Positions 2,570 to 56,527 of a stretch of 64,000 bases of DNA are shown here, piece by piece. The notes under the pieces are model-generated. The model worked only from the letters and a program-made list of their open reading frames with translations. It was not told the DNA's origin and did no database searches. The stretch lies in assembly GCF_044324875.1 (NCBI RefSeq), contig NZ_CP172185.1. One strand, 5' to 3'. The translations under genes and the position numbers were made by a program. The first letter of the stretch is position 1, and every line of letters begins with the position of its first letter. The DNA comes from Escherichia coli. GTDB taxonomy: Bacteria; Pseudomonadota; Gammaproteobacteria; Enterobacterales; Enterobacteriaceae.

Positions 2570-3778
2570 ATGACACCTTCAAATTATCAGCGTACCCGCT
2601 GGTTGACACTCATCGGTACTATCATTACCCAGTTTGCCCTTGGGTCGGTTTATACCTGGAGCCTGTTTAACGGCGCGCTTTCTGCCAAGCTGGATGCGCC
2701 GGTAAGCCAGGTCGCTTTCTCTTTCGGCTTGTTAAGTCTGGGGCTGGCAATTTCATCTTCTGTTGCGGGGAAATTACAGGAACGTTTTGGCGTTAAACGC
2801 GTCACTATGGCTTCCGGCATTTTGCTGGGATTAGGCTTCTTCCTGACAGCGCATTCTGACAACCTGATGATGCTGTGGTTAAGCGCCGGTGTGCTGGTCG
2901 GTCTGGCGGATGGCGCGGGTTACCTGCTGACGCTCTCTAACTGCGTGAAGTGGTTCCCGGAGCGTAAAGGTCTGATCTCCGCGTTCGCTATCGGTTCTTA
3001 TGGTCTGGGTAGCCTGGGTTTCAAATTTATCGACACGCAGCTGCTGGAAACGGTGGGTCTGGAAAAAACATTTGTGATTTGGGGAGCGATTGCGCTGGTG
3101 ATGATTGTTTTCGGCGCAACGTTAATGAAAGACGCACCAAAACAGGAAGTGAAAACCAGCAATGGTGTCGTGGAGAAAGATTACACGCTGGCAGAGTCGA
3201 TGCGTAAACCGCAGTACTGGATGTTAGCGGTAATGTTCCTGACTGCCTGCATGAGCGGCCTGTACGTGATTGGGGTAGCGAAAGATATCGCACAAAGTCT
3301 GGCACACCTTGATGTGGTTTCCGCAGCCAATGCAGTCACTGTTATTTCCATCGCCAACCTTTCAGGTCGTCTGGTTCTGGGGATACTGTCTGACAAAATC
3401 GCCCGAATCCGTGTTATCACCATTGGTCAGGTGATTTCGCTGGTGGGTATGGCGGCCCTGCTGTTTGCACCATTGAATGCAGTGACGTTCTTTGCAGCGA
3501 TTGCCTGCGTGGCGTTTAACTTTGGCGGCACTATCACGGTGTTCCCGTCACTGGTCAGTGAGTTCTTCGGCCTCAATAACCTGGCGAAAAACTACGGTGT
3601 GATTTATCTCGGTTTCGGTATCGGCAGCATTTGTGGGTCGATTATCGCCTCACTGTTTGGCGGCTTCTATGTGACCTTCTACGTGATTTTCGCCCTGCTG
3701 ATTCTGTCACTGGCGCTCTCTACGACGATTCGTCAGCCAGAGCAGAAAATGTTGCGTGAGGCGCATGGCTCCCTTTAA
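2570..3778 (+). CDS. yhjX: MFS transporter YhjX (oxalate/formate antiporter family)
   Basis: ORF-track protein from MTPSNYQRTRWLTLIG...; multi-TM MFS character; start taken at the second Met of ORF 2525..3778. Confidence 0.85.
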   Translation: MTPSNYQRTRWLTLIGTIITQFALGSVYTWSLFNGALSAKLDAPVSQVAFSFGLLSLGLAISSSVAGKLQERFGVKRVTMASGILLGLGFFLTAHSDNLMMLWLSAGVLVGLADGAGYLLTLSNCVKWFPERKGLISAFAIGSYGLGSLGFKFIDTQLLETVGLEKTFVIWGAIALVMIVFGATLMKDAPKQEVKTSNGVVEKDYTLAESMRKPQYWMLAVMFLTACMSGLYVIGVAKDIAQSLAHLDVVSAANAVTVISIANLSGRLVLGILSDKIARIRVITIGQVISLVGMAALLFAPLNAVTFFAAIACVAFNFGGTITVFPSLVSEFFGLNNLAKNYGVIYLGFGIGSICGSIIASLFGGFYVTFYVIFALLILSLALSTTIRQPEQKMLREAHGSL

Positions 3779-5996: not shown

Positions 5997-6051
5997 GCAT
6001 TTGTAGCTCATGAGGATGAGAACTTCCGGGGGCAGGGAGGTTCGACTCGAC

Positions 6052-7367
<1,316 letters not shown>

Positions 7368-51129: not shown

Positions 51130-51954
51130 ATGCAACCACTACATGGTAATTGTCTAATTGCGTACGCAAGACATAAATATATTCTCACCATGGTTAATGG
51201 TGAATATCGCTATTTTAATGGCGGTGATCTGGTTTTTGCGGATGCAAGCCAAATTCAAGTGGATAAGTGTGTTGAGAATTTCGTATTAGTTTCAAGAGAC
51301 ACGCTTTCATTATTTCTCCCGATGCTCAAGGAGGAGGCATTAAAACTTCATGCACATAAAAAAGTTCCTGCATTACTCGTTCATCACTGTACCAGAGATA
51401 TTCCTGTTTTTCAGGAAGTTGCGCAACTATCGCAGAATAAGAATCTTCGCTATGCAGAAATGCTACGTAAAAGGGCATTAATCTTTGCGTTGTTATCTGT
51501 TTTTCTTGAGGATACGCAGTTTATACCGTTACTTCTGAACGTGTTGCAACCGAATATGCGAACACGAGTTTGTACGGTCATCAATAATAATATCGCCCAT
51601 GAGTGGACATTAGCCCGAATCGCTAGCGAATTGTTGATGAGTCCAAGCCTGTTAAAGAAAAAATTGCGCGAAGAAGGTACGTCATATTCACAGTTGCTTA
51701 CTGAGTGTAGAATGCAGCGTGCTTTACAACTTATTGTTATATATGGTGTTTCAATTAAGCGAGTTGCAGTATCCTGTGGATATCACAGCGTGTCGTATTT
51801 CATTTACGTTTTTCGAAATTATTATGGGATGACGCCCACAGAGTATCAGGAGCGATCGGCGCAGGAATTACCGAACTGTGGCTCGGCGGCAAGTATGGCT
51901 GCGCAAGGGAATTTTTACGGCACTGACCGTTCTACGGAAGGAATAAGATTATAG
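51130..51954 (+). CDS. gadX: AraC-family acid resistance regulator GadX
   Basis: 274-aa ORF, MQPLHGNCLIAYARHKYILTMVNGEYRYF... Confidence 0.95.
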   Translation: MQPLHGNCLIAYARHKYILTMVNGEYRYFNGGDLVFADASQIQVDKCVENFVLVSRDTLSLFLPMLKEEALKLHAHKKVPALLVHHCTRDIPVFQEVAQLSQNKNLRYAEMLRKRALIFALLSVFLEDTQFIPLLLNVLQPNMRTRVCTVINNNIAHEWTLARIASELLMSPSLLKKKLREEGTSYSQLLTECRMQRALQLIVIYGVSIKRVAVSCGYHSVSYFIYVFRNYYGMTPTEYQERSAQELPNCGSAASMAAQGNFYGTDRSTEGIRL

Positions 51955-51970
51955 AGTTTTACTCAGACAT

Positions 51971-52076
51971 AAAAAAAACCCGGCATAGGGGACCGGGAAG
52001 AGGATAGTCTGCCGTCTCCAGACTAATAAACCGTTATAACACTCCCTGTTGGCACGGGAAACTTTGTGCTCTCAGT
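51971..52076 (-). ncRNA. gadY: GadY small RNA (antisense to the gadX 3' UTR)
   Basis: Minus-strand ACTGAGAGCACAAAGTTTCCCGTGCCAACAGGGAGTG...GGTCCCCTATGCCGGGTTTTTTTT matches remembered GadY, with terminator hairpin and U-run. Confidence 0.75.
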
Positions 52077-52322
52077 AAGTTAAATATAACTTTTACTGGA
52101 AATAAGATCAGCCATTTTTTTATAAACATAAGCTATACGCTGTGCGAAAATATATTCGTGCTGCATTTACTTATTATCAATTAACTGTTATGCAAAACTA
52201 CTTTGTGGATAAATTTTGGTCCTACCAAATCTGGCAGTTTTTGCGCTAAGAAACAGTCTGGCATCATTTCATTAGTATACTGAAATTGAAATAATCGCAG
52301 TAATGAAATATAAGGGATAGTC

Positions 52323-53051
52323 ATGACTCATGTCTGCTCGGTGATCCTCGTTCGTCGTTCATTCGATATTTATCATGAACAGCAAAAAATATCGTTGCAC
52401 AACGAGAGTATCCTGTTACTGGATAAAAATTTGGCAGACGATTTTACGTTTTGTTCACCGGATACGCGACGACTGGATATCGATGAGCTGACAGTTTGCC
52501 ATTACTTACAAAATATTCGTCAGATACCACGCAATTTAGGGTTACATAGCAAAGACCGTCTGTTAATTAACCAGTCACCCCCCATGCCGCTGGTGACGGC
52601 GATTTTTGATAGTTTCAATGACTCCGGGGTAAATTCGCCGATACTGAGCAAAATGCTCTATCTTTCCTGTTTATCGATGTTTTCTCATAAGAAAGAACTG
52701 ATCCCCTTACTTTTCAATAGTATCAGTACTGTTTCAGGAAAAGTTGAACGCCTTATTAGCTTTGATATCGCCAAACGTTGGTATCTGCGCGATATTGCGG
52801 AAAGAATGTATACCAGCGAGAGTCTAATCAAAAAAAAGTTGCAGGATGAAAATACCTGTTTCAGTAAAATATTACTCGCCTCCAGGATGTCGATGGCCAG
52901 ACGATTACTCGAGTTACGTCAAATTCCTCTGCATACTATTGCGGAAAAATGTGGCTATAGCAGTACATCGTACTTTATAAACACATTTCGACAATATTAT
53001 GGTGTAACGCCACATCAGTTTGCGCAACATTCGCCAGGTACCTTTTCCTGA
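52323..53051 (+). CDS. gadW: AraC-family acid resistance regulator GadW
   Basis: 242-aa ORF with C-terminal AraC helix-turn-helix. Confidence 0.9.
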   Translation: MTHVCSVILVRRSFDIYHEQQKISLHNESILLLDKNLADDFTFCSPDTRRLDIDELTVCHYLQNIRQIPRNLGLHSKDRLLINQSPPMPLVTAIFDSFNDSGVNSPILSKMLYLSCLSMFSHKKELIPLLFNSISTVSGKVERLISFDIAKRWYLRDIAERMYTSESLIKKKLQDENTCFSKILLASRMSMARRLLELRQIPLHTIAEKCGYSSTSYFINTFRQYYGVTPHQFAQHSPGTFS

Positions 53052-53413
53052 CATATTTTGCATTTGAATATTGGTCAGGATCTCACACCTGCTTCATGTG
53101 AAACTCTTCCCTGATGATTTCTGCCGGGCTACCGGCTAGTTCTCTTTCGCAGTTTGCCAGGCGGTATAGGTATTTTCAGGAGGAAAAGACTCGGCATGTT
53201 TGGGATTATTAAGCTGACAATTCATACGATTACGGGAATGTGGGTCAGTATTGTGTTGTTTAAATTGATGACGAATGGCTGGAGTGGTTTCTACTTTCAG
53301 TGCTGTGTACTAAGCCTGGTATTCCTGACGGTTAGCTGGTTGTTGAGTGGTGAATGGTTAGCAGGAAAGAGTAAGGCTGAACCCTCACGTTCAACCTTAC
53401 TCTCATTTACACG

Positions 53414-56400
53414 TTACGCTTTTTTAAAGCGGGCAAAGAGATGTTCCACTACAACGAAAAAGACCGGAACGAAGTAAATTGCCAGCACTGTTGCGGCAAA
53501 CATCCCGCCCATCACGCCGGTACCTACCGCGTTTTGCGCGCCAGAACCGGCACCATGACTGATAACCAGCGGCAGCACGCCGAGAATAAAGGCCAGAGAG
53601 GTCATCAGGATTGGGCGTAAACGCATTCGCGCCGCTTCGATGATCGCCTCTATCGGCGTTTTCCCTTCTTTCTGCATCATCTCAACGGCAAATTCGACAA
53701 TCAGGATGGCGTTTTTGGCGGAAAGCCCGATGGTGGTCAGCAAACCAACCTGGAAGTAGACGTCATTACTTAAGCCGCGTAGATCGGTGGCCAGTAATGC
53801 GCCAACGACGCCTAACGGTACAACCAACATCACCGAGAACGGAATTGACCAGCTCTCATAAAGTGCGGCGAGGGCGAGGAACACCACGACCAGTGAAATG
53901 GCATACAGCGCGGGAGCCTGGTTTGAGGATAACGCTTCCTGATACGACAGTCCGGTCCATGAGTAGCCGACGCCTGCCGGAAGTTTAGCGACCAGGTCTG
54001 CCATAAATTTCATGGCGTCACCGGTACTTTTCCCGGCCGCCGCTTCACCTAAAATCTCCATTGACGGGATGCCGTTGTAGCGTTCCAGTCGCGGTGAACC
54101 ATAGGTCCATTCGGTAGACGAATAGGCAGAAAGCGGTGCCATCGTGCCAGAGGCGTTGCGTACATACCACTGGTTGATGTTATCCGGCAACATACGGAAC
54201 GGCGTGCCTGCCTGGACATACACTTTTTTCACCCGCCCCTGGTTGAGGAAGTCGTTCACGTAGCTGCTGCCGAAGGCGGTGGAAATTGTCTGGTTGATAT
54301 CAGACAGCGCCACACCCATTGCCTCGGCTTTCGCGGCGTTGACGTTCACTTTGAACATCGGTGTATCTTCCAGGCCGTTCGGGCGTACCCCGGTGACTTG
54401 ATTCGGTGATTGCGCTGCCAGTGATAATAGCTCGTTTCGCGCCTGGGTCAGTTTTTCGTGTCCCAGGTTGCCGTTGTCCAGCAGTTCCATATCAAAACCT
54501 GACGCGGTACCCAGTTCAGCCACCGCGGGTAAGTTGAACGGGAAGACGACGGCTTTATTGATACTGCTTAACGCAATCATTGCCCGCTGAATGATCGCGG
54601 TAACCGAGTTTTCCTCACCGACACGTTCAGACCACGGTTTGAGGCTGATAAACGCCAGACCGTTGTTTTGCCCCTGGCCGCTGAAGCCAAAGCCGCCAAC
54701 GGTAAACACCGACTGAACATTATCTTTCTCTTTAGTCAGATAATAATCCGTCACCTGTTGCAGCACTTTCGTGGTGTTAACCATGGTGGCACCGGAAGGT
54801 AACTGCGCGGTGGTCATAAATACCCCCTGATCCTCTTCTGGTAAGAAAGAGGTCGGCGTGCGCAGGAACAGCACCGCCATCCCGGCGCAAATCAGCAGGT
54901 AGACCACCATGTAGCGACCGGTACAACGCAACAGCGAGCGGGTGCTGTCGGTATAGTGCTGAGTTGATTTTTCAAACAGTGTGTTGAAGCGTGCGAACAG
55001 GGCGTTAGGTTTGTGACCACCTTCCGGCGCGGCTTTCAGAATGGTGGCGCACAGGGCAGGGGTCAGGCTCATTGCCACAAATACTGAAAGCAGCATGGAG
55101 GAGATCAGCGTGATGGAGAACTGGCGGTAGATCTCCCCGGTTGCACCGCTCATAAAGGCCATCGGCATAAACACTGCGGAAAGAACAACGGCAATCCCGA
55201 CCAGCGCACGTTGGATCTGCCCCATCGATTTATGCGTCGCTTCCTTCGGCGGTAGCTTATCTTCTGCAATGACACGCTCGACGTTCTCCACCACCACGAT
55301 GGCGTCATCCACCAGTAACCCTATCGCCAGCACCATCCCGAACATAGTTAACGTGTTGATGGTGAAACCGACCGCCGACAAGATCGCAAACGTCCCGAGA
55401 ATAACCACCGGTACGGCAATCGTCGGGATGATTGTGGCACGGAAATTCTGCAAAAACAGATACATGACCAGGAAGACGAGGATGATAGCCTCAACCAGTG
55501 TTTTAAAAACTTCCTGAATAGAAATTTCGATAAACGGCGTGGTGTCGTAAGGATAAACCGTCTTCAGACTTGCGGGGAAATAGGCTGATAAGCGGTTCAG
55601 CTCCTCTTTGACTGCCCGTGAGGTATCCAGGGCGTTTGCTCCGGTAGCCAGTTTGATGGCGATCCCGGCAGCAGGTTTGCCGTTATAGCGCGCCACGGTG
55701 GAATAATCTTCCGCTCCAAGTTCGACGCGGGCGACATCACGCAGCAGCACTTGCGAACCATCTTGCTGAACTTTCAACAGGATTTTGCCAAATTCTTCCG
55801 GCGTTTGCAGACGCGTCTGCACAATGATCGAGGCGTTTAGTTGCTGGTCTGCCGCCTGTGGCATGCCACCCAGTTGACCACCGGAAATCTGGTTGTTTTG
55901 CACCTTAATCTGGGAAATAACATCGGAAGGTACCAGATTGTATTTATTGAGTTTTTGCGGGTCCAGCCAGATACGCATGGCGTACTCGGAACCAAAGAGC
56001 TGTACGCTACCAACGCCCGCGGTACGGCTTAGCGGGTCTTTGATATTAGACGCTACATAGTCCGCGATATCGTACTGGTTGAGGCTGCCGTTATCAGAAA
56101 TAAACGCCGCTACCATCAGGATATTACTGCTCGACTTATCGACGCTAATCCCCTGCTGCTGCACCGCTTCAGGTAATGAAGGCATAGCGAGTTGCAGTTT
56201 ATTTTGCACCTGAACCTGTGCGATATCAGGCGATGTCCCAGTCTCGAAGGTCAGAGTAATAGAGGCATTACCCGCCGCATCACTGGTTGAAGACATGTAC
56301 ATCAGGCCATCAAGCCCATTCATATTTTGCTCAATCACCTGAGTGACCGAGTCTTCTACCGTTTGCGCATCGGCACCTGGATAGGTAGCGCTGATGGTAA

Positions 56401-56527
56401 TGGTCGGTGGCGCAATCTGCGGATACTGCGCAACCGGTAAGTTCATGATTGCCAGACCGCCTGCAAGCATCATAATAATGGCAAGTACCCAGGCAAAAAC
56501 CGGGCGATCAATAAAATAGTTAGCCAT
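53414..56527 (-). CDS. mdtF: RND multidrug efflux pump MdtF
   Basis: 1037-aa AcrB-like ORF. Confidence 0.95.

Follow-up and report, generated by a model that had tools for sequence, protein, structure and literature searches.

Genomic context of sORF15

The DNA analysed here (referred to as the window) is a stretch of 64,000 nucleotides from an Escherichia coli genome (assembly GCF_044324875.1, contig NZ_CP172185.1), which represents the acid fitness island of this species with the genes gadX and gadW, the small RNA GadY and the convergently oriented mdtF. Between gadW and mdtF, an open reading frame (ORF) is present on the + strand, which starts either with a TTG codon at position 53154 (107 aa) or with an ATG codon at position 53196 (93 aa) and ends with a stop codon at 53475-53477. 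The shorter version is identical in extent to sORF15, a candidate that has already been published from ribosome profiling (Schumacher et al., 2023, mSystems 8:e01037-23; PMC10746267, Table S7), and the comparative data presented here establish it as a real protein-coding gene under purifying selection. As judged from the ORF list and the annotation, gadX extends from 51130 to 51954 and gadW from 52323 to 53051 on the + strand, the latter being the upstream gene whose transcript carries sORF15, and mdtF, coding for a resistance-nodulation-division (RND) efflux permease, from 53414 to 56527 on the - strand. The coding sequence of sORF15 (53196-53477; 93 codons plus TAA) begins 145 nt 3' of the gadW stop codon, and its last 64 nt (53414-53477) overlap with the last 20 codons and the stop codon of mdtF on the opposite strand. 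The original prediction for this locus, made from the sequence of the window, had correctly described the ORF and its peptide (MFGIIKLTIHTITGMWVSIVLF...), its placement in the 3' region of gadW and the 64-nt overlap with the 3' end of mdtF.

Mapping of the window coordinates onto E. coli K-12 leads exactly to NC_000913.3:3663464-3663745 (minus strand), and the ORF is intact in strain MG1655 with a single amino acid difference from the window allele. At this position, no gene is annotated in NC_000913.3 or in the RefSeq genomes of E. coli that were sampled (RefSeq and the Prokaryotic Genome Annotation Pipeline, PGAP). The earlier statement that no gene is known here is thus correct as far as the RefSeq annotation is concerned, whereas the gene does appear in the literature. 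The exact sORF15 protein is deposited in GenBank and UniRef as "hypothetical protein" from more than 1000 contigs, and the gene is single-copy and syntenic, with a median of one place per genome. It shares its transcript with gadW, being located in the extended 3' part of the gadW mRNA: a scan for sigma-70-like promoters was negative for the interval from gadW to the ORF, and a terminator scan of the + strand found none within about 1.1 kb downstream of it. The only RNA family matched in Rfam was GadY (RF00122, 150 bits; 51966-52079, - strand), which is intact and located between gadX and gadW, as expected for this locus; neither the ORF nor the spacer between gadW and the ORF matched any family, and the predicted RNA fold of this spacer is no better than that of shuffled sequences (z = +0.6).

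Published evidence for translation

The entry for sORF15 in Table S7 of PMC10746267 describes the same gene (NC_000913.3:3663464-3663745(-), ATG start, 93 aa), whose product is identical to the K-12 protein and differs from the window allele in one residue (C65R). It was spotted by inspection of the gadW 3' untranslated region (UTR) and assigned to the gadX-gadW transcription unit. At pH 4.4 compared to pH 7.6, its Ribo-seq signal increased with a log2 fold change of +4.21 (adjusted p = 1e-38) and its RNA level with a log2 fold change of +4.0, which corresponds to about 16-fold, and the ribosome coverage was even and fitted the boundaries of the ORF (PMC10746267). The same study predicted two transmembrane helices with DeepTMHMM, detected a FLAG-tagged version by Western blot after expression from pBAD24 with 15 nt of the native leader, and proposed an association with GadC or MdtF. 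Ribosome profiling had been named in the original prediction as a check on the ORF, and these data provide acid-induced ribosome occupancy of exactly this reading frame. Note that the literature search yielded no functional follow-up of sORF15, and that the text of the PIRT-seq paper does not mention the locus.

The same authors also reported a 13-aa ORF in the gadW 3' UTR, termed sORF14 (window positions 53098-53139, + strand), which is not conserved: its GTG start codon is replaced by GTA in four lineage groups, its frame is broken by indels, an in-frame stop codon is present in one lineage, and most of the remaining ones have lost the terminal stop codon. From these alignments, sORF14 appears to be without comparative support as a gene.

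Purifying selection on the reading frame

Because the length of the ORF alone is not beyond chance in AT-rich DNA (42 % GC) and is therefore unconvincing, diverged copies of the locus were collected from 12 Escherichia loci. Four of these were obtained by scanning species-representative genomes with a degenerate GadW peptide pattern, which yielded no further ones; the more distant lineages were reached via protein look-ups, which provided the other eight as contigs coding for divergent forms of the predicted protein, including those of E. marmotae and Escherichia clades. The part of the ORF that does not overlap with mdtF (53196-53413) shows 85-99 % nucleotide identity to the window without a single gap or stop codon in all 12 loci. 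In the same loci, gadW is 74-97 % identical to the window at the nucleotide level, and the spacer between gadW and the ORF is 71-99 % identical and contains several indels. At gadW identities of 74-87 %, the ORF still shows 85-88 % nucleotide identity, compared to 71-81 % for the spacer.

The substitutions follow the reading frame of sORF15. The ratio of non-synonymous to synonymous substitution rates (dN/dS; method of Nei and Gojobori) amounts to 0.08-0.23 in the ORF frame, similar to the values for gadW (0.07-0.15), while the remaining five frames show values of 0.4-10 and contain three to eight stop codons each. Variable columns are distributed over codon positions 1, 2 and 3 as 23/12/41 (chi-square p = 2e-4), and the deficit of non-synonymous changes is significant down to a binomial p of 7e-9 for single pairs. 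Synonymous divergence of the ORF (dS 0.17-0.78) is on a par with that of its neighbour mdtF (0.14-0.64), which means that the low dN does not merely reflect slow evolution of the whole region. The conservation and codon-substitution analysis suggested along with the original prediction therefore came out in favour of the ORF.

Strong selection is confined to the conserved core of about 55 residues, which corresponds to codons 1-55 (53196-53360, + strand) and exhibits dN/dS values of 0.04-0.14 (binomial p down to 2e-9). The tail is weakly constrained, as its non-overlapping codons 56-72 show dN/dS values of 0.3-0.8, based on few substitutions.

As a side observation from the same pairs, gadW is a hot spot of divergence with dS values of 0.3-2.3, compared to 0.14-0.64 for mdtF and 0.17-0.78 for sORF15, and some gadW alleles of strains labelled as E. 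coli are only 87 % identical at the nucleotide level. The pattern points to either long-standing allelic lineages or recombination, and the boundary would lie between gadW and the ORF.

Start codon and ribosome-binding site

The ATG codon at 53196 and the AGGAGG motif located 12 nt upstream of it (53178-53183) are invariant across the loci of the E. coli clade. The motif is part of a 16-nt Shine-Dalgarno block (53172-53187, + strand; ATTTTCAGGAGGAAAA), which is the longest invariant run of the entire spacer between gadW and the ORF across 13 sequences. The alternative TTG start at 53154, from which the original prediction had derived an extent of up to 107 aa, is changed to TCG in several lineages, and the conserved Shine-Dalgarno motif serves the ATG codon; the TTG start was therefore discarded, and the product has to be regarded as a protein of 93 rather than 107 aa.

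Predicted membrane topology

Kyte-Doolittle analysis with a 19-residue window indicates two peaks above 1.6, the hydrophobic segments covering approximately residues 4-22 and 31-56, in agreement with the two probable transmembrane helices proposed initially. In the conserved core, these two predicted helices are separated by a short loop, and the motif GWSGF-F-CC is invariant, E. fergusonii included. The C-terminal tail (codons 56-93; 53361-53477, + strand), which is limited to lineages of the E. coli clade, contains 11 Lys or Arg residues and only 2 Asp or Glu residues, a charge distribution that fits the positive-inside pattern of a helical hairpin. Because this tail is strongly basic, both termini are probably located in the cytoplasm, and the protein is predicted to form an N-in/C-in helical hairpin with two transmembrane helices in the inner membrane. 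The short invariant loop (N/H)GWSGF(Y/F)F and the Cys-Cys pair would then be positioned on the periplasmic side. His10 was considered as a pH sensor and dropped, as a Leu residue is present at this position in E. fergusonii. Scans of the protein against Pfam (E <= 10) and NCBIfam (E <= 1) did not return any family match.

Phylogenetic distribution and the ortholog in Escherichia fergusonii

Homologs were searched by two indexed searches covering 5.8 billion proteins and by an exhaustive HMMER search of 1.84 billion representatives. Judged by the genus assigned by the source, these searches gave no homologs outside of Escherichia and Shigella, the matches consisting only of the sORF15 family and fragments; two UniRef cluster labels within the family name the broader taxa Enterobacteriaceae and Gammaproteobacteria. 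Homologs with more than 80 % identity have been claimed for Vibrio, Klebsiella, Salmonella and Enterococcus (PMC10746267, Fig. S9C), but these matches may represent mislabelled or contaminated records.

The farthest relative in the family comes from E. fergusonii ATCC 35469 (CU928158.2) and is a protein of 54 aa. Its ORF starts with GTG 20 nt past the stop codon of a gadW gene whose product is 62 % identical to GadW and ends just past helix 2. Downstream of it, a terminator (GGCCGG-TTTC-CCGGCC) precedes the 3' end of mdtF, and the two genes do not overlap. The protein has an identity of about 40 % with the core of the E. coli protein, with GIIKL and GWSGF-F-CC as common motifs, and reaches hydropathy peaks of up to 2.5 on the Kyte-Doolittle scale. 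The identities between the E. coli and E. fergusonii genes at the three codon positions are 57/79/23 %, and the proportions of non-synonymous and synonymous differences (pN and pS) are 0.33 and 0.96, respectively, exactly the pattern that coding sequences show at saturation. The conservation of the ORF thus extends to this species, and because the ortholog ends after helix 2, the conserved entity is the two-helix hairpin.

Regarding the gene neighbourhood (around positions 6001-6215 of the extracted locus), E. fergusonii has retained hdeD-gadE-mdtE-mdtF, the 54-aa ORF and the gadW-like gene, while the region upstream of gadW contains a histidine-phosphatase gene and another member of the AraC family instead of gadX and gadA. 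The literature search provided nothing usable on the Gad status of this species. It was also observed that the synonymous sites of the ORF are fully saturated between the two species (pS 0.96), although their MdtF proteins are 92.6 % identical.

The C-terminal tail and its overlap with mdtF

Within codons 58-70 of the ORF, a stem-loop is encoded for the - strand (53367-53404), which begins about 10 nt past the mdtF stop codon and consists of a 16-bp stem with a folding energy of -27.3 kcal/mol (z = -4.3). The hairpin is kept at -22 to -28 kcal/mol in every lineage despite substitutions. The conserved stem is strong and the U-tract (CUCUUUCC) is weak, and a simple terminator scan flags a shorter version only; the structure is probably the terminator or a 3'-end hairpin of mdtEF. 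The tail of sORF15 is a lineage-specific extension of the ORF through this hairpin into the mdtF antisense strand. Over the 64 nt of overlap, codons of the ORF and of mdtF have their third positions in common, and five of the six variable sites are found at this shared wobble position. In Escherichia sp. E2593, one nucleotide has been inserted into the T-run at the stop codon of mdtF (at about window position 53420; about 3200-3291 of the extracted locus), by which MdtF is extended to 1043 aa and the tail of the ORF is shifted in frame, resulting in a product of 96 aa.

This arrangement resembles known convergent 3'-3' antisense gene pairs in its tail-to-tail overlap of 64 nt with coinciding wobble positions, the most permissive antisense phase. 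It differs from them in that only a weakly constrained tail is involved here, and that the overlap is lacking in E. fergusonii and modified in E2593. The overlap therefore looks like a by-product of the position of the stop codon rather than a conserved design.

Population variants

The intact allele of a 42-nt stretch of the tail was recovered from 4951 of 5426 complete E. coli genomes and an allele with a 1-nt deletion from none of them (0/5426), the latter being found in Logan assemblies with intact gadW (and a full-length mdtF in one case). Shorter database versions of 76, 54 and 46 aa were traced mostly to NCBI contigs in which mdtF or gadW are fragmented as well, which points to error-prone assemblies. 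Truncated and frameshifted alleles, at first taken to indicate that the tail or the gene is dispensable, were therefore rejected as population variants, given these fragmented neighbours and the lack of the deletion allele among the complete genomes. Many of the truncated public versions derive from long-read assemblies with shattered mdtF and gadW genes, illustrating that sequencing errors can mimic alleles of short genes in databases.

A disruption of a different kind was encountered in E. coli O121 strain 201805972 (NZ_CP119441.1), where an IS66-family element (tnpA, tnpB, tnpC) is inserted into the N-terminal part of the ORF at about window position 53236. An IS1 element is located beside it, and gadW no longer adjoins mdtF in this strain.

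Functional interpretation

The explanation that accounts best for these data, and which we hold with strong confidence, is that sORF15 is a genuine gene, which is induced by acid together with gadXW and codes for a probable two-helix inner-membrane protein. Translation would start from its own conserved AGGAGG motif and ATG codon in the 3' region of the gadW mRNA, and since the gene is part of this mRNA, its product would be made when severe acid stress switches on the gadX-gadW unit. The 93-residue protein is expected to insert into the inner membrane as a two-helix hairpin and most likely serves as a small accessory subunit, which would bind and tune a bigger inner-membrane protein encoded by the acid-resistance island, as do other small membrane proteins of bacteria. 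MdtF appears to be the best candidate for this partner, because the arrangement of gadW, the ORF and mdtF is kept even in E. fergusonii, whose gadW is not flanked by gadX and gadA; the alternative candidate is GadC.

The closest functional parallel is AcrZ (YbhT), a 49-aa accessory protein with one helix, which is associated with the RND pump AcrB and encoded away from acrAB. Both are small, stress-regulated inner-membrane proteins of enterobacteria, and sORF15 adjoins mdtF, the gene for an AcrB paralog. The differences are that AcrZ contains a single helix in 49 aa compared to two helices in 93 aa and does not share any sequence similarity with sORF15, and that AcrZ is widespread in Enterobacteriaceae, whereas sORF15 is restricted to Escherichia, with MdtF binding as a hypothetical property. 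MgrB, MgtS, SgrT, CydX and KdpF, which act by binding to a larger membrane protein, consist of fewer than 50 aa with one helix. They are similar to sORF15 in being short and hydrophobic, in their stress-specific induction and in being often missed by annotation; sORF15 differs from them by its greater length, the helical hairpin, the basic tail and the lack of a described family. Extending the comparison with AcrZ, an acid-induced subunit restricted to Escherichia might dock on the transmembrane domain of MdtF, or on GadC, and adjust transport at low pH, and the acquired tail would then link the gadXW and gadE-mdtEF units physically and transcriptionally; this detailed scenario is a tentative one with a rather small chance of being correct in full.

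Several observations weigh against the proposed interpretation. The AlphaFold2 model predicts helices at residues 2-27 and 30-87 with low confidence (predicted local distance difference test score, pLDDT, of 62.7) and was too weak for a fold search. The spacing of 12 nt between AGGAGG and ATG is above the optimum, and the E. fergusonii ortholog starts with GTG and lacks an obvious Shine-Dalgarno motif. The insertion of the IS66 element indicates that the gene is dispensable at least in the background of the O121 strain. The start of sORF15 is absent from the list of starts obtained by Ribo-RET at neutral pH, which fits an expression restricted to acidic conditions and does not constitute positive evidence. 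The published Western blot was obtained by arabinose-driven expression from a plasmid (PMC10746267). The assignment of MdtF as partner is based on synteny and the analogy to AcrZ only, and a sequence similarity to AcrZ was not found, as indicated by the lack of a Pfam match and of membership in the AcrZ family.

Among the alternatives, the one surviving best likewise assumes a real protein, but assigns GadC or another membrane protein of the acid island, such as HdeD or YhiD, as partner instead of MdtF. This is consistent with the co-transcription with gadX and gadW, with the induction at pH 4.4 together with the Gad system, and with the suggestion of GadC or MdtF by the original authors (PMC10746267). 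However, gadC is unlinked to the locus, and synteny is maintained with gadW and gadE-mdtEF, also in E. fergusonii, an argument which is weak either way, and we consider a partner other than MdtF rather unlikely.

A role in which the act of translation matters and not the peptide is very improbable. Ribosomes on the ORF might stabilise the gadXW mRNA, or might melt the hairpin or the antisense duplex with the mdtEF transcript and thereby couple the two operons, and it would suit this idea that the ORF passes across the 3' hairpin of mdtF and continues for 64 nt antisense to this gene, that both operons belong to the acid-resistance regulon, and that the tail is weakly constrained in sequence. 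A role of this type would not conserve residues, yet purifying selection acts on the core at the amino acid level, and GWSGF-F-CC as well as the hydrophobicity are kept in E. fergusonii, where the stop codon of the ORF precedes the terminator and mdtF is not reached.

It is even harder to reconcile with the data that sORF15 represents a hydrophobic protein resembling type I toxins, whose synthesis is checked by the overlapping antisense transcript of mdtF. The product is indeed small, hydrophobic and stress-induced, and a convergent overlapping transcript is present, but typical toxins of this type have one helix and fewer than 60 aa, in contrast to the two helices and 93 aa of sORF15. In addition, no dedicated antisense small RNA is present (Rfam recognises GadY only, which is located upstream of gadW), the gene is single-copy and syntenic instead of repeated, and the antisense overlap is missing in E. 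fergusonii. The authors of the ribosome profiling study overexpressed sORF15 for one hour, recovered the protein and did not report toxicity (PMC10746267).

Finally, the view that the ORF is spurious, as considered well possible in the original prediction, and owes its conservation to elements of the RNA (3' UTR of gadW, terminator hairpin of mdtF and mdtF antisense region) may draw on the strong conserved hairpin inside the ORF, the mdtF constraint on its last 64 nt, and the lack of a RefSeq or PGAP annotation and of a Pfam or NCBIfam family, but is refuted to within a very small residual probability by the comparative coding signal and the published ribosome footprints and Western blot (PMC10746267), as the hairpin and the overlap span only the last third of the ORF whereas the strongest constraint is found in codons 1-55, the substitutions follow a codon periodicity (dN/dS 0.04-0.14; 23/12/41; 79 % identity at position 2 versus 23 % at position 3 between E. 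coli and E. fergusonii), and none of the 12 loci contains a frame-breaking indel, although indels abound in the neighbouring spacer.

The existence of the gene as such is not new, since it was known as a translated candidate; what is added here beyond the published study is the evidence for selection, the definition of the core, the ortholog in E. fergusonii, the origin of the tail and the mdtF overlap with its shared wobble positions. K-12 is the best-annotated bacterial genome and its acid fitness island has been heavily studied, yet a gene of 93 codons is absent from RefSeq, PGAP and the curated family libraries. The comparative evidence turns a Ribo-seq candidate into a well-supported gene and defines its functional core, the hairpin with the GWSGF-F-CC motif, which shows what to mutate. 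If sORF15 indeed modulates MdtEF or GadC, it would be an added component of acid resistance and of acid-linked drug efflux in enteric pathogens.

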